Under the pieces are notes generated by a model. That model was not told the DNA's origin and did no database searches. It worked only from the letters and a program-made list of their open reading frames with translations. The position numbers and the translations under genes are program-made. Shown here piece by piece: positions 2,475 to 60,958 of a stretch of 64,000 nucleotides of DNA. The first letter of the stretch is position 1. Every line of letters begins with the position of its first letter. Source of the DNA: Candidatus Omnitrophota bacterium (GTDB taxonomy: Bacteria > Omnitrophota > Omnitrophia > Omnitrophales > Aquincolibacteriaceae); NCBI GenBank assembly GCA_022709525.1, contig JAKLIQ010000003.1, forward strand, positions 1,771 to 65,770, read 5' to 3'.

Positions 2475-3719
2475 ATGATGCAAACCCTTCACCGCCGGGA
2501 ATGCTGCCGTTTGTGCGGCAGCCGCCGGCTCGAACTCGCTCTTCCGATGAAAGCATCTCCCATCGGGGATGCCTATGTGCCGGCGTCGCGCCTCAATGAG
2601 CCGCAAGATCTTTATCCATTGGACCTTTATCTCTGCGGGGATTGCGGTCATGTGCAGAATCTGGATATCGTAGACCCCGAAAGTCTATTCCGCGATTATC
2701 TTTTTACAACAAACAGTTCGAGCGGGCTTGTTGAGCATTTCCGTGCCTATGCCGAGGATGTGCTGTCTCGCCTGAAACCCAGGCCCGGCTCGCTCGTAGC
2801 CGAGATCGGCAGCAATGACGGCTCGCTTCTCAGATTTTTTAAAGACAAAGGCATGCGCGTCCTCGGCGTTGATCCCGCGCGCGATATCGCCAAACAAGCA
2901 ACGGCCTCGGGGATAGAAACCCTCCCGGAATTTTTTACTTCCGAGCTTGCTGCACAGATTCGGAAAAAGCATGGTCCGGCCGCTGTTTTTTGCGCCAATA
3001 ATGTTTTTGCGCATATCGACAATTTGACCGATATTGTGTTCGGCATCCGCGATCTTCTGGCCCAAGATGGGGTTTTTGTTTTTGAAGTTTCATACCTTGT
3101 GGATATCGTTGACCGATTTTTGTTTGACACGATCTACCATGAACATGTTTCGCATCATTCGATCGCGCCGCTCGCCAAATTTTTTGAAAAAACAGGTATG
3201 CAATTAATCGATGTGCAGCGGAATATGAGCAAGGGAGGTTCTATTCGCGGGTTTGCCCAGCGATTGGAAGGAAAACGCCCCGTCCAGCCTATTGTCAATG
3301 AGTTGATCGCGGCGGAAAAAACGAGAGGTTTTGACAGATTGCCACTTTACCGGGATTATGCCGCAAGGATTGAACGGCTTCGGGCGGCAGCCAATTCTTT
3401 TATTGATAACGAAATAGCTCGTGGCAAAACGGTCGCGGGATACGGCGCTTCGACCACCACCACCACCCTTATGTGGAGTTTTGATCTTGCCGGCAAGCTC
3501 GCTTTTGTTGCCGACGACAATCCAAAAAAACAAGGGCTTTTCTGCCCGGCCTGTCATATTCCGGTCTTGCCGTCCGCGGAACTTTACACACGACGGCCTG
3601 ATTATACGGTGATCCTTGCCTGGCAGTATGCCGACGCTATCCTGAAAAAACATGAACGCTTTATGAAGGAAGGCGGGAAATTCATCCTTCCGCTTCCGGC
3701 GCTGAAGATTTTTCCATAA
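2475..3719 (+). CDS. Class I SAM-dependent methyltransferase with an N-terminal zinc ribbon and a C-terminal C-methyltransferase domain. It is a paralog of the gene at 66..1139.
   Basis: CCRLCGS...CGDCGHVQN zinc-ribbon motif. Methyltransferase core (LVAEIGSNDGSLL, VFCANNVFAHIDN). C-terminal FVADDNPKKQGLFCPACHIPV motif. Confidence 0.8.
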   Translation: MMQTLHRRECCRLCGSRRLELALPMKASPIGDAYVPASRLNEPQDLYPLDLYLCGDCGHVQNLDIVDPESLFRDYLFTTNSSSGLVEHFRAYAEDVLSRLKPRPGSLVAEIGSNDGSLLRFFKDKGMRVLGVDPARDIAKQATASGIETLPEFFTSELAAQIRKKHGPAAVFCANNVFAHIDNLTDIVFGIRDLLAQDGVFVFEVSYLVDIVDRFLFDTIYHEHVSHHSIAPLAKFFEKTGMQLIDVQRNMSKGGSIRGFAQRLEGKRPVQPIVNELIAAEKTRGFDRLPLYRDYAARIERLRAAANSFIDNEIARGKTVAGYGASTTTTTLMWSFDLAGKLAFVADDNPKKQGLFCPACHIPVLPSAELYTRRPDYTVILAWQYADAILKKHERFMKEGGKFILPLPALKIFP

Positions 3720-14461: not shown

Positions 14462-14531
14462 GGCACGCAAGCGGGCTTTTTTGTGATGAAAGCCCTCCGA
14501 AAACCCCTATAATAAGCCCTCTTATTCATTT

Positions 14532-15038
14532 ATGGAAAAACCACATCACGAACATTTCATGAAAGAAGCGCTGAAACAAGCCGCGATCGCGCTTGAAAAA
14601 GGCGAGGTGCCGGTGGGCGCCGTGGTGGTGTGGAAGCAAAAGATCGTTGCGCGGGCTTACAATCAAATGGAAATGCTCAAAGACCCGACCGCGCACGCCG
14701 AAATGATCGCCCTGACACAAGCTTCGGAAACCTTAAGCCAGACGCCGGAGGCAAAACCGGCCGTCGGCCGGGAACACCGGGGGTCGCTTGAAGGAGCGAC
14801 GCTTTATGTGACGCTAGAGCCGTGCCCCATGTGCGCCGGGGCGCTTGTCATGACCAAATGCACGAGCCTTGTTTACGGCGCGCAGGACCCGAAGGCGGGC
14901 GCGTGCCGCAGTCTTTACCGGATCACCGAGGACGACCGGCTGAACCATCGCCTTAAGGTCACGGGCGGCGTGATGGCGGATGATGCGAAATTCCTCTTGT
15001 CGGAATTTTTTAAAAATCTAAGAAAAGAGAAACGGTAA
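14532..15038 (+). CDS. tadA: tRNA adenosine(34) deaminase.
   Basis: CMP/dCMP deaminase zinc motifs HAEMIAL and [10 protein letters not shown]. Confidence 0.9.
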
Positions 15039-15043
15039 AACGC

Positions 15044-15079
15044 GGAGAGGTGCCAGAGCGGTTGAATGGGGCAGTCTTG
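15044..15079 (+). pseudogene. 5' half of a tRNA-Ser(UGA)-type gene. It runs from acceptor GGAGAGG through the D-arm to anticodon-loop ...CAGTCTTG, and is interrupted after anticodon position 35.
   Basis: Near-identical to the first 36 nt of the intact tRNA-Ser at 15394..15481. The acceptor GGAGAGG is complementary to CCTCTCC in the 3' half at 15598..15604. Confidence 0.6.
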
Positions 15080-15129
15080 CCACCGCCTGCGAAGCGGCGG
15101 GGTCCCGCCTCTTTTCGGGCGGGAAAAAC
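15080..15129 (+). repeat. Copy 1 of a 50-nt double GC-hairpin element: CCACCGCCTGCGAAGCGGCGGGGTCCCGCCTCTTTTCGGGCGGGAAAAAC.
   Basis: Two stem-loops (CCGCC/GGCGG and CCCGCC/GGCGGG) followed by an A-run. Near-identical copies are at 15509..15558 and 60511..60559. Confidence 0.8.
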
Positions 15130-15145
15130 CAGTTGGGAAAACAAC

Positions 15146-15415
15146 ATGTGGTATGTTTATATTCTCAAGAGCCTGAAAACGGGGCGATATTATGTGGGGT
15201 ATGCAGAAGACCTCGAAAAAAGACTTGAGCAACACAATAGTGGAAAAACGAGATTGTTGAAATCCCATTTGCCACTAGCGCTCATTTATAATGAAAAATA
15301 TGCAAGCAAGTCCGAAGCTTATTTAAGAGAAAAGAAAATCAAGAGTTATAAAAGCGGAGAAGCGTTTAGGCGATTGATACGCAATCAAAATTTGGAGGCG
15401 TGCCAGAGCGGTTGA
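15146..15415 (+). CDS. GIY-YIG nuclease-family protein, small YhbQ/UPF0213 type, 89 aa.
   Basis: MWYVYILKS...GRYYVGYAEDLEKRLEQHNSGK is the GIY-YIG motif. The 15050..15415 ORF in the provided track starts inside the tRNA fragment. The first ATG with spacing from the A-rich leader is 15146. The stop codon lies inside the downstream tRNA gene. Confidence 0.8.
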   Translation: MWYVYILKSLKTGRYYVGYAEDLEKRLEQHNSGKTRLLKSHLPLALIYNEKYASKSEAYLREKKIKSYKSGEAFRRLIRNQNLEACQSG

Positions 15416-15481
15416 ATGGGGCAGTCTTGAAAACTGCTAAGGTCCTTGTGGCCTTCAGAGGTTCGAATCCTCTCGCCTCCG
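15394..15481 (+). tRNA. tRNA-Ser (anticodon UGA), intact, no encoded CCA.
   Basis: Acceptor GGAGGCG/CGCCTCC. 3-bp D-stem. Anticodon stem GCAGT/ACTGC with loop CTTGAAA. Long variable arm. T-arm AGAGG-TTCGAAT-CCTCT. Discriminator G. Confidence 0.8.
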
Positions 15482-15508
15482 ATTCATTTTGATTGCGGAG
15501 CGGTCTTG

Positions 15509-15558
15509 CCACCGCCTGCGAAGCGGCGGGGTCCCGCCTCTTTTCGGGCGGGAAAAAC
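15509..15558 (+). repeat. Copy 2 of the 50-nt double-hairpin element. It is preceded by a 14-nt remnant of a tRNA 5' half (GCGGAGCGGTCTTG).
   Basis: Identical to copy 1. The flanking 5' remnant matches the end of a tRNA-Ser 5' half. Confidence 0.8.
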
Positions 15559-15608
15559 TGCTAAGGTCCTTGTGGCCTTCAGAGGTTCGAATCCCTCCCT
15601 CTCCGCCA
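15554..15608 (+). pseudogene. 3' half of a tRNA-Ser(UGA)-type gene with encoded CCA. It runs from anticodon-loop AAAACTGC through the variable and T arms to acceptor CCTCTCC-G-CCA. Its T-stem is imperfect, so it is probably a decayed remnant.
   Basis: Matches the 3' portion of the intact tRNA. The acceptor pairs with the displaced 5' half at 15044. The T-stem 3' strand CCCTC does not pair well with AGAGG. Confidence 0.5.
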
Positions 15609-15610
15609 TG
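15588..15610 (+). repeat. 23-bp direct repeat, copy 1: CGAATCCCTCCCTCTCCGCCATG. This is the tRNA 3' end and candidate attL-like site.
   Basis: A perfect second copy lies at 15791..15813. Confidence 0.7.
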
Positions 15611-15635
15611 TTTTCATTATGATTCCAAGGAGAAC

Positions 15636-15779
15636 ATGACGACCTTATCGTCAAGATATAGAGAAATCTTGTACGATAAGGCCGTAAACTTTGGGGAGGA
15701 TTCGAAGGGAGCACTGATTGGAAATATGACAGATGTCATATTTACAGTGCGGGTGGCCGACCTGAAGCGAATGAAATGA
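15636..15779 (+). CDS. Small hypothetical ORF of 47 aa between the 23-bp direct repeats.
   Basis: ATG preceded by AAGGAG at 15626. The 15489..15779 ORF in the track starts inside repeat sequence. Weak support overall. Confidence 0.25.
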   Translation: MTTLSSRYREILYDKAVNFGEDSKGALIGNMTDVIFTVRVADLKRMK

Positions 15780-15790
15780 GCGGAAGGCGC

Positions 15791-15813
15791 CGAATCCCTC
15801 CCTCTCCGCCATG
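15791..15813 (+). repeat. 23-bp direct repeat, copy 2 (attR-like).
   Basis: Identical to 15588..15610. Confidence 0.7.
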
Positions 15814-15928
15814 ATTTTCTTTGATTTTTTGAATGGGAAATCCTGACGGTCCTGGCTACCGTTAAATTTTAATCAAAGTCAGGGACGTTTTGCTTGTGTA
15901 AAACAGCGGATTGACAGCGGAGGAAAAA

Positions 15929-16666
15929 ATGAAAAAAAACGCATGGATCGTTCTGGTTGTTTTTGGGTTTGCGGCGCTTTTTATGAGCGGCTGTACGCGA
16001 GATGCCGGTTATGGCCAAAGACTTGAAGACAGCGTTCCCACCCTTAGCGTTCAAGGGCAAGGCAAAGTAGAGATCGTTCCGGATGAAGCTACGGTGCGGT
16101 TCGGCGTTGTCAGCGATGAAAAAACGCTGTCGAAGGCCTATCAGGACAATACGGGCAAAATGAACAGGGCCATCGCGGCCGTTAAAGCGATGGGGATAGC
16201 CGACAAGGACATCCGGACATCTTCTTATAATGTTAGGCCTGTTTACGCTCAAGATGAAAGAGGGTATACCCTTCCGGGCAAACCCGTATCGTTCCAGGTC
16301 AGCCAGCAATTAACGGTTGTTGTCCGGGACCTTTTGAAGACCGGCGCCATGATCGACCAAGTGATCACCGGAGGCGTGAATACGTTCGACGGGATCCAGT
16401 TTACCTCGAGCAGGATCGACGACGTTGAGAAGGAAGCGAAATTAAAAGCGGCCCAGAACGCGAAAGAAAAAGCGCAGCTCCTTGCCAAAGGGCTGGGCGT
16501 CAAGGTCGGCAGGGTATTAAAGGCGGGCGAAGCGACGGTGTATCCGTCGCCGACGCCTATGCGCATGATGGCGTTTGACGCGGCGTCGGTCAAATCCAGT
16601 CCCGAGATCGAAGGCGGCTCCATAGAAATAAACGCCAGTTGCAGCGTCATTTATGAGATCGCTTGA
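15929..16666 (+). CDS. SIMPL-domain (DUF541) periplasmic lipoprotein.
   Basis: Start moved to the ATG after a GGAGGA RBS. Lipobox FMSGC. The N-terminal region has the pattern of the 26 kDa periplasmic immunogenic protein family. Confidence 0.6.
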   Translation: MKKNAWIVLVVFGFAALFMSGCTRDAGYGQRLEDSVPTLSVQGQGKVEIVPDEATVRFGVVSDEKTLSKAYQDNTGKMNRAIAAVKAMGIADKDIRTSSYNVRPVYAQDERGYTLPGKPVSFQVSQQLTVVVRDLLKTGAMIDQVITGGVNTFDGIQFTSSRIDDVEKEAKLKAAQNAKEKAQLLAKGLGVKVGRVLKAGEATVYPSPTPMRMMAFDAASVKSSPEIEGGSIEINASCSVIYEIA

Positions 16667-16684
16667 TCTCCGAAACGCGATGAT

Positions 16685-18361
16685 ATGAGTCTTCTTTTTT
16701 TGGTCCTTAGTTCGATCGCCGCCCTGATAACTGGGTACCGGCTCTACGGGGGTTTCTTAAGCCGCATGCTCAAACTCCGGGATGATATCCCCACTCCCGC
16801 TTGCGCGTTGCGCGACGACGTCGACTTTGTCCCCGCGGGGAAATGGTATCTGCTAGGGCAGCATTTTTCGGCGATCGCGGCGGCCGGCCCCATCGTCGGT
16901 CCCATCCTTGCCGGCATGTGGTTCGGCTGGCTTCCGACGCTTCTCTGGATCCTTTTAGGAGGCATCTTCATCGGCGGCGTTCATGATATGCTGACCGTCG
17001 CGGCTTCGGTCCGTCATCAGGGCCGCTCGATCGCCGAGATCCTCCGCGAATATATGAGCAAACGCGCCTACGTCCTTTTTCTGCTTTTTCTCTGGTTTTC
17101 GCTCATTTATATCATCACGACTTTCATGGATATTACAGCGGGAACCTTTACCGATCCGGTAAGGGGCGCGGGCGTCGCTTCTTCTTCCATGATGTATCTC
17201 GCGCTTGCCTTCGTGATGGGGATCGTTTTAAAACGGTTCAACCCGCCGCTCGGGGTTACCACGCTTATTTTTTTACCGCTTGTATTCGCGGCCGTTTTTT
17301 TAGGGCCGCATTTTCCTCTCACGATGCCGGCCTGGGGCGGTCATGATCCCCGGACGCTTTGGAACGGGGCCCTTCTTTTCTATTGTTTCGCCGCCGCAGT
17401 GATCCCTATGTGGCTTTTATTGCAGCCAAGAGGGTACTTGGGGGGATTCTTCCTTACCCTTATGGCCGGCTCAAGCCTGATTGGAATCGTCGTCGGGAGT
17501 TTTTTGCAGCCTCTCGCGATCCGTTACCCCGCTTTTACGGGCTGGGTCAGCCCGGGAGGGTTTCCGCTTCTTCCGCTTCTTTTTACGACCGTGGCCTGCG
17601 GGGCCTGCTCGGGGTTTCACGCGATGGTCTCTTCGGGTACGACATCCAAACAGGTCGCTAAAGAAAGCGACATCAAGCTGATTGGGTACGGAGGGCTTTT
17701 GCTGGAAAGCTTTGTCGCGGTCATCGCGCTTGCGACAGTCCTGATCCTGACAACAACAGGCGCGCGCGATCTGCAGGACCCCAACCAGGTCTTTGCGCAC
17801 GGCGTCAGCGCGTTTTTGTCGCGCCTCGGAGTCCCGGGCGAATTCGCCCTTAATTTCGCATTGCTCGCTTTTGCCACTTTCGTTTATGATACGCTGGATG
17901 TGGCGACGAGGCTCGGCCGCTACATTTTTGAAGAGCTGACGGGATGGCGCGGAAAATGGAGCCCCTACGCGGCATCGCTCATTACGTTGATCTTGCCCGC
18001 GATCTTTGTAACCACAAAGATGACGGATGCCCAGGGACAGGTGATCCCGGCGTGGAAAATGTTCTGGGCCGTGTTCGGTTCGAGCAATCAGCTTTTGGCG
18101 GCGCTCGTGCTTTTGGCCGCCGGGCTCTGGCTTTTTAAAAACAAAATGCGTTCCAGCGTCGCGCTTTGGCCTTCTTTTTTTATGATGGCTGTCGCGCTAT
18201 GCTCGCTTTTTTTCATTTTAAAGCCCTGGATCGCCGAGATGGTCTCGCAGCGGACGTTCCTGATGAACCCCATGGGGATCACCGGCGTTCTTCTGGCGGG
18301 GCTGGCTCTTTTGCTTCTAACGGAAGGCATTTCGATCTTCGTTAAAACGCGAAGATCTTGA
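16685..18361 (+). CDS. cstA: Carbon starvation protein A (peptide/pyruvate transporter family).
   Basis: Multi-TM protein of 558 aa with conserved CstA N-terminal motifs (YLLGQHFSAIAAAGPIVGPILA, GGVHDM). Confidence 0.85.
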   Translation: MSLLFLVLSSIAALITGYRLYGGFLSRMLKLRDDIPTPACALRDDVDFVPAGKWYLLGQHFSAIAAAGPIVGPILAGMWFGWLPTLLWILLGGIFIGGVHDMLTVAASVRHQGRSIAEILREYMSKRAYVLFLLFLWFSLIYIITTFMDITAGTFTDPVRGAGVASSSMMYLALAFVMGIVLKRFNPPLGVTTLIFLPLVFAAVFLGPHFPLTMPAWGGHDPRTLWNGALLFYCFAAAVIPMWLLLQPRGYLGGFFLTLMAGSSLIGIVVGSFLQPLAIRYPAFTGWVSPGGFPLLPLLFTTVACGACSGFHAMVSSGTTSKQVAKESDIKLIGYGGLLLESFVAVIALATVLILTTTGARDLQDPNQVFAHGVSAFLSRLGVPGEFALNFALLAFATFVYDTLDVATRLGRYIFEELTGWRGKWSPYAASLITLILPAIFVTTKMTDAQGQVIPAWKMFWAVFGSSNQLLAALVLLAAGLWLFKNKMRSSVALWPSFFMMAVALCSLFFILKPWIAEMVSQRTFLMNPMGITGVLLAGLALLLLTEGISIFVKTRRS

Positions 18362-60474: not shown

Positions 60475-60510
60475 GGAGAGGTGGCAGAGTGGTCGGATGC
60501 GGCGGTCTCG
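60475..60510 (+). pseudogene. Displaced 5' half of a tRNA-Ser-type gene: GGAGAGGTGGCAGAGTGGTCGGATGCGGCGGTCTCG. It ends in the anticodon loop after position 35.
   Basis: About 85% identical to the first 36 nt of the intact tRNA at 60831. Its acceptor GGAGAGG does not match that tRNA's 3' strand. Confidence 0.6.
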
Positions 60511-60559
60511 CCACCGCCTGCAAAGCGGCGGGGTCCCGCCTCTTTTGGGCGGGAAAAAC
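60511..60559 (+). repeat. Copy 3 of the double-hairpin element. It is 49 nt, with 2 differences from copies 1 and 2.
   Basis: CCACCGCCTGCAAAGCGGCGGGGTCCCGCCTCTTTTGGGCGGGAAAAAC. Confidence 0.8.
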
Positions 60560-60578
60560 TCAAAAATTTATTTGAATT

Positions 60579-60825
60579 ATGTGGTATGTTTATATTTTAA
60601 AAAGCGAAAAAAACAGGTCGGTATTATACCGGTTATACGGAAGTCCTCGAAAAACGTTTGAAGCAACACAATAGCGGAAAGACAAAATCGCTCAAAGCGC
60701 ATCTGCCAGTTCAAGCTGTTTATATTGAAAAATTTATAAGCAGGCGTGAAGCATTTCAAAGAGAGCGACAAATTAAAAACTACAAAGGCGGAAAAGCATT
60801 TAGACGGTTGATTGAGAAAGGCTGA
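60579..60825 (+). pseudogene. Second GIY-YIG (YhbQ-type) nuclease gene. It is interrupted by a +1 frameshift in an A7 homopolymer at 60607..60613.
   Basis: MWYVYILKSEK- then, in the +1 frame, -TGRYYTGYTEVLEKRLKQHNSGKTKSLKAHLPVQAVYIEKFISRREAFQRERQIKNYKGGKAFRRLIEKG. Its first 18 nt are identical to the 15146 gene. The stop lies 5 nt before the tRNA. Confidence 0.65.
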
Positions 60826-60830
60826 TTCGC

Positions 60831-60917
60831 GGAGGTGTGGCAGAGCGGTCGAATGCGGCAGTCTCGAAAACTGTTAACCGCGTAAGCGGTTCGGAGGTTC
60901 GAATCCTCCCGCCTCCG
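60831..60917 (+). tRNA. tRNA-Ser (anticodon CGA), no encoded CCA.
   Basis: Acceptor GGAGGTG/CGCCTCC with one G-U pair. 3-bp D-stem. Anticodon loop CTCGAAA. Long variable arm CCGCGTAAGCGG. T-arm GGAGG-TTCGAAT-CCTCC. Confidence 0.75.
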
Positions 60918-60958
60918 TATTATTTTTTAAGAAAGCAATAATTAAAGAAGGAAAAATT

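Follow-up and report, generated by a model that had tools for sequence, protein, structure and literature searches.

A tRNA-Ser(UGA) gene of a Candidatus Omnitrophota genome is split by a putative selfish GIY-YIG nuclease cassette that carries a replacement tRNA

At positions 15044-15813 of the 64,000-nucleotide stretch of DNA analysed here (the window), which derives from a Candidatus Omnitrophota metagenome-assembled genome (MAG), a tRNA-Ser(UGA) gene is interrupted between its positions 35 and 36 by an insert of 474 nt. We propose that this locus is probably a resident tRNA gene split by a small, selfish, free-standing cassette of the homing type, which encodes a GIY-YIG nuclease and carries a replacement tRNA. 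This proposal builds on the anatomy of the locus, on the empty sites of closely related species, on an architecture that recurs throughout the nuclease family, on the conservation and covariation of a double-hairpin element (hereafter E) and on the purifying selection acting on the nuclease open reading frame (ORF), all of which are directly observed. Judged by sequence, the cassette is a member of a large family nested at tRNA genes in at least eight phyla. Our limited literature search found no published account of such an arrangement in bacteria, although one may be published somewhere.

Read from left to right, the insert consists of a first copy of E (E1), the GIY-YIG ORF, an intact tRNA-Ser(UGA) gene (tRNA B), a stub and a second copy of E (E2) (Table 1). 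The six parts that a first-pass annotation of this DNA had described are all present in the sequence, and its account of an outer tRNA split by about 470 bp, with a 5' half ending after position 35 and a junction at 35/36 rather than 37/38, is borne out. The acceptor strand of the 5' fragment, GGAGAGG, is of the type found at empty sites, and the interior of this fragment is identical to tRNA B. The 3' fragment is of the B type as far as the T-loop and thereafter carries a resident-type end, CCCTCCCTCTCCGCCA, complementary to the acceptor strand of the 5' fragment. When the two outer halves are joined in silico, ARAGORN calls a tRNA-Ser(tga) of 91 nt with seven perfect acceptor-stem pairs and a T-stem in which three of five pairs are left, in agreement with the complementary acceptor and the decayed T-stem reported before. 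In its intron mode, ARAGORN did not call the outer tRNA. The inner tRNA-Ser(UGA) had rightly been taken to be complete.

E1 and E2 are identical at 50 of 50 positions, and zero matches were found in shuffles of the window. Together with the adjoining anticodon arm they form direct repeats of 62 nt that bracket the insert. The terminal AAAAC of the 50-nt element corresponds to tRNA positions 36-40 and therefore belongs to the tRNA, so that the true insertion measures 45 nt and lies between G35 and A36. Thus, of the previously described 50-nt element with two hairpins and an A-run, the identical copies and the two hairpins, which covary, are retained, whereas the last five nucleotides must be given back to the tRNA. 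Homologous stubs (GGACGGTCTTG, GGTCTTG) precede the downstream copies of E at three related loci (L013, L014 and L015). The stop codon of the nuclease ORF (TGA, 15413-15415) falls within the inner tRNA. On the left, the locus is anchored across species by tadA, and this synteny is kept in L003, L005, L013-L015, L093, L094 and L097.

Table 1. Features of the split tRNA-Ser(UGA) locus, its neighbours and the second cassette of the window
Feature	Position	Strand	Basis or remark
tadA, tRNA adenosine-34 deaminase	14532..15038	+	NCBIfam NF008113, 147 bits; Pfam deaminase domains
Displaced 5' fragment of the resident tRNA-Ser(UGA), positions 1-35	15044..15079	+	GGAGAGGTGCCAGAGCGGTTGAATGGGGCAGTCTTG; direct repeat and alignments
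E1, 45-nt double hairpin (CCACCGCC...GGCGGGA) plus AAAAC	15080..15129	+	Covariance model R1, 52.3 bits, E-value 3e-18
GIY-YIG nuclease ORF, 89 aa, UPF0213/Slx1-like, catalytic core only	15146..15415	+	Pfam PF01541
Left arm of 12-nt perfect inverted repeat	15380..15391	+	Right arm 15486-15497; 100% complementary, 94 nt apart
Intact tRNA-Ser(UGA) B, within the cassette	15393..15482	+	ARAGORN; Rfam RF00005, 55 bits
14-nt stub, 5' strand of anticodon stem and loop bases to position 35	15495..15508	+	GCGGAGCGGTCTTG; sequence; abuts E2
E2, double hairpin plus AAAAC	15509..15558	+	Identical to E1; model R1
Displaced 3' fragment of the resident tRNA-Ser(UGA), position 36 to end plus CCA	15554..15610	+	Direct repeats, alignments, ARAGORN on joined halves
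Segment X, ~180 nt, plus repeat of the last 23 nt of the resident tRNA	15611..15813	+	Conserved fold, 7 covarying pairs (three species)
Second cassette: tRNA-Ser(CGA) 5' fragment, positions 1-35	60475..60510	+	Sequence
Second cassette: E3	60511..60559	+	R1, 52.7 bits, E-value 2e-18; one substitution and one deletion relative to E1
Second cassette: GIY-YIG ORF, frame broken	60579..60825	+	One extra A in the A7 run 60607-60613
Second cassette: intact tRNA-Ser(CGA)	60830..60918	+	ARAGORN

When the region 14500-16500 was searched against Rfam at an E-value of up to 10, no family of introns or ribozymes was matched and the inner tRNA was the sole significant match, in line with the earlier statement that a group I or group II core is absent. 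Matches to sX4, tRNA-Sec, PreQ1 and other Rfam families were set aside as sub-threshold, tRNA-like noise. Between 15044 and 15813 there is no recombinase ORF or domain, and no HUH/Y1 transposase was found at the locus, the GIY-YIG ORF being the only one with a recognisable domain. We also observed that the 12-nt inverted repeat (CGCAATCAAAAT / ATTTTGATTGCG), whose left arm coincides with the 3' end of the nuclease ORF, brackets the inner tRNA; it might represent a processing stem or a recombination scar.

Evidence for an insertion comes from the same tadA-linked site in related species. Judged by TadA, the closest relatives of the window are L097 (93% identical), L093 (91%) and L094-L096 (90%), and in all of them a single intact tRNA-Ser(UGA) comes after tadA, while a GIY-YIG gene, E and any scar are absent. 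This is the comparison with relatives lacking the insertion that the first-pass annotation had called for. In acceptor stem (GGAGAGG/CCTCTCC) and 3' end, the tRNAs of L093 and L094 match the outer halves of the window exactly; therefore, the outer halves represent the resident gene and the intervening 474 nt the insertion. Occupied sites, with fragment, E, GIY-YIG ORF and tRNA, are found in more distant Omnitrophota (L003/L004, L005/L006/L012, L013, L014 and L015), whose nuclease ORFs share 64-77% amino-acid identity. L013, L014 and L015, which are independent MAGs from other studies, also possess the stub, E and 3' fragment as a downstream unit, which in L013 and L015 occurs in tandem, with an extra E inside the T-loop.

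With the tRNA linked to the cassette of L005, the inner tRNA B shares 90% identity, a distinctive variable arm included, versus 81-83% with the empty-site tRNAs. On this sequence comparison, the inner tRNA looks to be of a foreign type that differs from the resident. The outer arms are instead mosaic, their outermost parts being of the resident type and their interiors identical to tRNA B, and co-conversion during the repair of a break, or equally gene conversion at a later time, would give such a pattern. We had at first taken the 5' fragment of L005 to be of the donor type, which would have meant that the 5' fragment travels with the cassette; this idea was dropped, since the empty sites show it to be of the resident type.

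Two further contigs bear on the assembly of the window. L001 is identical to it over 10 kb, and L002, from a different sample (ERZ27257500), confirms the left part of the locus. The latter contig is 734 nt long and identical to the window, and it ends exactly after CTTG, at position 35 of the inner tRNA. This end point is the position at which E is inserted in the fragments, which hints at alternative junctions within the population.

Element E is a conserved structure in its own right. We aligned twenty E-like sequences from different phyla and used them as the basis of the covariance model R1. The consensus is a pair of hairpins with GGTY as linker and an A-run after the second; under the two-hairpin model 95% of cells are paired and four pairs are changed on both sides, versus 35-53% of cells paired in slid controls. 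The fold of E has an energy of -28.9 kcal/mol (z = -3.5). Its minimum-free-energy form, a single long hairpin, was rejected in favour of the two-hairpin model, which is conserved and covaries across phyla. E has constant flanks, a G before CCACCGCC...GGCGGGA and AA after it, and it is found in three kinds of tRNA loop: the D-loop (GGTTG^AATGC, GGCTG^AAACC), the anticodon loop (CTTG^AAAAC, CTCG^AAAAC, TTGG^AAAGG) and the T-loop (GTTCG^AATCC). Over the 326 kb of sequence scanned, strong R1 matches are almost confined to the 70 nt that precede the ORF start and to downstream tRNA fragments. The first-pass annotation had proposed to check whether every copy of E sits in the anticodon loop of a tRNA-Ser; E is nearly restricted to cassette tRNA fragments, but D- and T-loops and other tRNAs are also occupied. 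GC hairpins are 14-fold denser immediately upstream of the ORFs (5.75 per kb) than in the background of these loci (0.41 per kb).

Between the window and L003, E is identical at 50 of 50 positions, while the adjacent ORF has reached saturation at synonymous sites (pS ~0.7) and no alignment is possible for the spacer that leads to the ATG. Since this identity persists beside saturated synonymous sites, E is, as judged from these alignments, either under very strong constraint or repeatedly exchanged. In the stems of E, G-T and A-C mismatches number 11 and 7 among the top 70 sequences, which is too close to separate RNA-level from DNA-level structure. A scan with exact patterns gave no match in GTDB genomes and a single one in metagenomes, in the species of L005, these patterns being too strict for the variable loops. 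Two other ideas on E were considered. A scan for promoters and terminators flagged its second hairpin as terminator-like only because of a T-rich loop; an A-run follows E, so that it is a terminator on neither strand. Pairing between the anticodon-stem strand of the fragment and the start of E is possible in L003 and L005 and is interrupted in the window copy.

The nuclease matches PF01541 with 55.9 bits (cut-off 22.6; E-value 5e-15). In a profile search of the PDB, the best chains were 1zg2 (3e-13) and 1ywl (4e-13), both UPF0213, followed by SLX1 chains, so that, among solved structures, the UPF0213 proteins BH0048 and EF2693 stand nearest, ahead of SLX1. This confirms the earlier assignment of an 89-aa YhbQ-type GIY-YIG ORF that stops inside the tRNA. 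Residues Y5, Y16, G18, R26, H30, N31 and E62 are invariant across 23 homologues, and from general knowledge of the fold we take them to fill the catalytic roles of the GIY-YIG domain (Tyr of GIY, Tyr of YIG, Arg, His and metal-binding Glu). A dN/dS of at most ~0.1 indicates purifying selection on the ORF. Proteins of the family are 80-89 aa long and have no accessory domain. The group I intron endonuclease model TIGR01453 reached 20 bits, versus a cut-off of 56, and only over residues 4-38. Matches in PADLOC were marginal and partial (E-value of at least 5e-4, ~25 residues), with no match to a defence system, and searches of the nuclease against PHROGs and NCBIfam returned nothing useful. A 2006 survey of the superfamily regarded bacterial standalone Slx1-like proteins as its minimal form and did not mention a linkage to tRNA genes (PMC1564403).

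Using a profile of 23 homologues, we searched GTDB with one genome per species and obtained 416 relatives, from Omnitrophota, many Patescibacteria, Ignavibacteria, Bacteroidota, Planctomycetes, Terriglobia and others. The following counts refer to the best 80 of these 416 loci. A co-oriented tRNA starts between -30 and +130 nt from the ORF end at 61 of the 80; it is a tRNA-Ser with one of four anticodons at 39 of these loci, tRNA-Tyr at nine and tRNA-Glu at five, with other species occurring singly. If either side of the ORF is considered, a co-oriented tRNA is present at 74/80 loci, and at ~54/80 a second, partial copy of the tRNA, disrupted by GC hairpins, lies on the other side of the ORF. 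Within 500 nt upstream, 46 of the 61 loci have a copy of the 5' part of the tRNA, mostly 100% identical. This copy takes the form of positions 1-36 as one block, or of positions 1-14 or 1-21, an insert and then positions 22-36; Glu and Gly copies comprise positions 1-29 and 47-61, with a GC hairpin in place of the anticodon arm. Most related loci have the 5' fragment only and no 3' half. There is also a mirror class, in which an intact tRNA is followed by the ORF and then by a hairpin-disrupted copy, and at Thr/L33 loci of the Candidate Phyla Radiation (CPR; Patescibacteria) the ORF is simply bracketed by CCCCGCC..GGCGGGG hairpins. Tandem cassettes are found in L024, L037, L038 and L052, so an intact tRNA can be invaded again. 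The targets include, besides tRNA-Ser, tRNA-Tyr, Glu, Pro, Thr and Gly genes. On the whole, the view that the locus reflects a GIY-YIG-associated mobile cassette with a tRNA copy is upheld by the empty sites, the foreign inner tRNA and the recurring layout, but such cassettes are confined neither to tRNA-Ser nor to anticodon loops.

Many of the ORFs run into the tRNA, and the protein tails end in ...ESWQSG. Since this happens in many loci, the suggested processing of the nuclease message by RNase P and RNase Z at its tRNA-like flanks is plausible on sequence grounds. In L014 (1501-1935), the nuclease ORF runs without a stop through the whole tRNA and into the downstream E, for 144 codons; a full-length message would there depend on how the transcript is processed. 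In a search of viral contigs we found five distant relatives of the nuclease, none of which adjoined a tRNA or had the E pattern, and phages are not an obvious vector.

Two loci of the family have unusual surroundings. In L049 (~1930-2850), eleven tandem units of 86 nt lie downstream of a tRNA-Tyr, each ending in the last 23 nt of the tRNA and holding a weak E-like hairpin. L010 has a decayed N-terminal piece of a GIY-YIG gene and a remnant of a tRNA 3' end (3330-3525) downstream of its cassette tRNA-Ser(GGA), as well as a second, intact GIY-YIG gene 2 kb upstream (959-1237); this one locus appears to hold several generations of the element.

Considering all the above results, the cassette may operate as follows. 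The nuclease would start a break in or near a loop of the tRNA gene, and the break would be repaired from the occupied allele, with tRNA sequence serving as the homology arms, that is, by homing. The displaced tRNA fragment would provide one arm and the tRNA or the 3' fragment the other, and arms made of tRNA would render the element portable to any similar tRNA gene. At the locus of the window, the two halves of the resident gene would persist as arms on either side, with their inner parts overwritten by sequence of the cassette tRNA. The replacement that the element carries, either a whole tRNA or just the part that was displaced, would preserve decoding, and because of this replacement no splicing would be needed. 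Only 10-25 nt separate E from the ATG, too little to accommodate a promoter; transcription of the ORF therefore most likely starts at the tRNA promoter and proceeds in the order fragment plus E, ORF and tRNA, with RNase P then releasing the tRNA. E would act as an element in cis, most likely as the recognition or immunity site of the nuclease on DNA or as the end of the element; alternatively, it could be a device that penalises deletion. The precise ends of E and its G^AA target in three kinds of loop suggest that it is inserted by a specific reaction and not by mere copying.

Several points weigh against such a homing cassette. The activity of the nuclease, its cleavage site, transfer, the route of homing, the making and processing of the transcript, and what E does are what we infer from the sequence, and mobility is deduced from presence or absence and from architecture. 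The ~80-aa core is without the DNA-binding domain that gives specificity to known GIY-YIG homing endonucleases such as I-TevI and Seg. An intact tRNA beside the ORF keeps the presumptive target, and simple target-site immunity fails to explain this layout. The mosaic arms could equally stem from later gene conversion among the three tRNA copies. Some CPR loci have the reverse complement of E, so its orientation is mixed, and the distribution of E was sampled around GIY-YIG loci only. Moreover, the cassette at the tadA site is old, with ORFs that are 64-77% identical, saturated synonymous sites and purifying selection, which fits a long-resident and possibly useful gene.

A bolder reading, which we offer tentatively and hold to be unlikely, is that the GIY-YIG core and the double hairpin make up a new, structure-guided mobile system specialised on tRNA genes. 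Specificity would then come from the hairpins of E, from stem-loops in the DNA of the tRNA gene, or from the transcript of the tRNA fragment and E as a guide and scaffold, in place of a DNA-binding domain, and E would be an active end or a recognition module and not a passive scar. If true, this would give the large UPF0213/YhbQ family its first function. Quite unlikely, in our view, though a serious alternative as to how the element moves, is a hairpin-bounded transposon, whose Slx1-like nuclease would cut and insert structure-specifically at G^AA of stem-loops in tRNA-gene DNA, with E forming the ends and staggered cuts around the structure of hairpin and anticodon stem leaving duplicated tRNA segments behind as by-products. 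A transposon would agree with the precise ends of E, with the same G^AA in three tRNA loops and several tRNA species, with E1 and E2 bracketing the insert as parts of 62-nt direct repeats, with the hairpin-bracketed ORF of CPR Thr/L33 loci and the occurrence of E in either orientation, and with a nuclease that lacks a DNA-binding domain and whose nearest solved relatives after UPF0213 are the structure-specific SLX1 nucleases; indeed, the same G^AA in different loops and tRNAs requires new insertions, beyond copying by homology. On the other hand, we know of no GIY-YIG enzyme that acts as a transposase, the mosaic arms and tandem arrays are equally explained by recombination, and the G-T and A-C mismatch counts of the stems do not discriminate. 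We regard as improbable that the module is domesticated and non-mobile, with a role in maintaining tRNA loci, in processing tRNA transcripts or as a regulatory 5' leader, and that its patchy occurrence reflects loss only. Strong purifying selection, persistence at the tadA site despite saturated synonymous sites, the extreme conservation of E and an ORF that is co-oriented with the tRNA and overlaps it would all suit a domesticated module, as would the RNA role suggested from bacterial Slx1-like GIY-YIG domains fused to a TrmH-type tRNA methyltransferase (PMC1564403). The tRNA genes of the closest relatives are, however, intact and scar-free and the inner tRNA is of a foreign type; tandem cassettes exist, one copy in the genome of the window is frameshifted, L010 holds decayed ORFs and debris of tRNAs, and many tRNA species and phyla are involved. 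A foreign tRNA, tandem and decayed copies, and a spread over many tRNAs and phyla are hallmarks of selfish spread and decay.

The remaining explanations have far less in their favour. It is highly improbable that the locus is a true intron or a split tRNA, from which E or the 474-nt insert would be removed in cis, or in trans through pairing between the two copies of E. The outer halves do join to a recognisable tRNA-Ser with a perfect 7-bp acceptor stem, the insert lies in the anticodon loop and E is a stable hairpin. However, neither E, at 45 nt, nor the insert is accompanied by a ribozyme match in Rfam, the junction is at 35/36 and not at 37/38, E1 and E2 are identical direct repeats and not complementary, the outer T-stem retains three of five pairs and an intact isoacceptor lies inside the insert; with most related loci lacking a 3' half and ARAGORN silent on the outer tRNA in intron mode, the earlier alternative of an undescribed intron-like arrangement is not supported. 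Very improbable, too, is a remnant of a classical integrase island at the tRNA, with att duplications and an unrelated small nuclease there by chance. tRNA genes often serve as integration targets (bioRxiv 10.1101/2022.07.05.498093), and a repeat of the tRNA 3' end lies 203 nt downstream (15791-15813), as it would at an attR; yet this repeat and the segment X that precedes it are also present at empty sites, no integrase ORF was found at the locus, the cassette duplicates 5' parts of tRNAs, and the linkage of nuclease and tRNA holds at 74/80 loci. Finally, the source is a MAG and L002 ends exactly at position 35 of the inner tRNA, which could point to strain variants stitched together at tRNA repeats. 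Such an assembly artefact is extremely unlikely, since independent MAGs of related species (L013, L014 and L015) share the full architecture; in addition, L001 is identical over 10 kb and the repeats are short (up to 65 nt).

The closest described analogue of the proposed homing cassette would be the mobile endonuclease ORFs (mORFs) of fungal mitochondria. In Allomyces macrogynus atp6 and in Glomus atp6, atp9, cox2 and nad3, these elements carry a replacement gene end and leave the native end as a fragment (PMC3630166). The parallel concerns a free-standing gene for a homing-type endonuclease (LAGLIDADG in mORFs, or GIY-YIG in atp9) inside a conserved gene, its presence or absence between close relatives, and a replacement piece of a foreign type. 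The Omnitrophota cassette differs in residing on a bacterial chromosome and in targeting a tRNA and not a protein gene; the part replaced is usually the 5' part and here a whole tRNA, the nuclease is a core of ~80 aa, and a conserved double hairpin is present. A second parallel is SegB of phage T4, a GIY-YIG homing endonuclease encoded within a cluster of tRNA genes (PMC2330249), which, like other free-standing GIY-YIG homing endonucleases (PMC2330249, PMC2988022), resembles the cassette nuclease in being a free-standing gene, here likewise among tRNA genes. Genes of the Seg type spread by cutting the allele that lacks them, with co-conversion of flanking markers, and by analogy the cassette may be likened to them. 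Seg proteins, in contrast, have DNA-binding regions and lie between genes, involve neither a tRNA duplication nor a hairpin, and are a phage phenomenon.

As for E, mobile double-hairpin elements have been described in the mitochondria of Allomyces (Paquin et al. 2000, as cited in PMC3787672). From that citing account, such elements and the fungal GC clusters would share with E a short, G+C-rich sequence, two stem-loops, an occurrence at many sites and the behaviour of mobile DNA; E is instead tied to one nuclease family and to the loops of tRNA copies. The standalone UPF0213/YhbQ/Slx1-like proteins (PMC1564403; 1zg2, 1ywl) are of the same family and equally minimal in their domain, whereas a systematic nesting at tRNA genes with hairpin-disrupted copies is not mentioned in PMC1564403. 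REP/RAYT and IS200/IS605 elements similarly combine a small nuclease or transposase gene with short, conserved flanking hairpins and a sequence-specific target tied to a stem-loop. They use HUH/Y1 transposases, of which the locus has none, and REPs occur in hundreds of scattered copies, unlike E, which in the window is confined to cassettes. Integrase islands and prophages also land at tRNA genes, restore them by a carried partial copy and leave a partial duplicate behind; in their case the 3' part is duplicated, the recombinase is of the tyrosine or serine type and the length runs to kilobases, whereas the cassettes duplicate mostly 5' parts, have no recombinase and span ~0.3-0.5 kb.

Standalone GIY-YIG proteins of the UPF0213/YhbQ type are common in bacteria, and our findings suggest that one large branch of them consists of selfish elements inside or beside tRNA genes. 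A spare copy of the disrupted sequence would keep the host viable without splicing, as a compact alternative to the intron strategy, known until now chiefly from mitochondrial protein genes of fungi. Elements of this kind yield partial, hairpin-disrupted tRNA copies that confuse tRNA annotation, break metagenome assemblies and would move tRNA alleles between species. They also raise the question of how an 80-residue nuclease with a conserved double hairpin finds tRNA genes across at least eight phyla.

Downstream of the split gene, the final 23 nt of the outer tRNA recur at 15791-15813 as a third copy of the 3' end, directly after the ~180 nt of segment X (15611-15790; Table 1). Segment X also follows the intact tRNA at the empty sites of L093 (3144-3327) and L094 (3172-3341), and across the window, L093 and L094 the terminal repeat comprises the last 19-23 nt of the tRNA. 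Because they are present at empty sites as well, segment X and the 3'-end repeat are, on this comparison, an older feature that is separate from the cassette. The conserved part of segment X opens with the T-loop region in inverted form (GGGGAGGATTCGAAGGGAGC), a stretch that pairs with the terminal repeat, and contains two internal hairpins; segment X has no match in Rfam. Beyond it, the genes for SIMPL (DUF541) and CstA (15911-18361) lie between the tRNA locus and PilZ, response-regulator and CorA genes, which in L003, L093 and L097 directly follow the tRNA, a further indel difference at this hotspot.

Other hairpin inserts were observed at the tadA-linked sites. In L003 (2815-2869), a different multi-hairpin insert of ~55 nt (TCCGCC...GGCGGA) is located at 35/36 of an extra upstream tRNA fragment and is followed by AAAAC. 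A second, unrelated double hairpin, CCTGnnn..nnnCAGG ACAGT CCTGnnn..nnnCAGG, with AT-rich loops and covarying stems, is inserted between GGCAG and GCAGAGCGG in the D-loop region of the 5' fragments of L003 (2713-2790), L005 (2826-2903) and L015 (~1380-1460). The window has a half-copy of it at 15846-15887, upstream of the SIMPL gene, and no more copies.

The window also contains a second cassette (60475-60918), located just upstream of a dnaX-like gene and simpler than the first, being without a 3' fragment. Like the 12-nt inverted repeat and the third copy of the tRNA 3' end, this cassette had escaped the first-pass annotation. Deletion of one A from the A7 run of its nuclease ORF restores a full-length protein, MWYVYILKSEKTGRYYTGY...KAFRRLIEKG, and the frameshift could be due to a pseudogene, a homopolymer sequencing error or slippage. 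With its E3, the 64-kb window holds three copies of E, all of them in cassettes.

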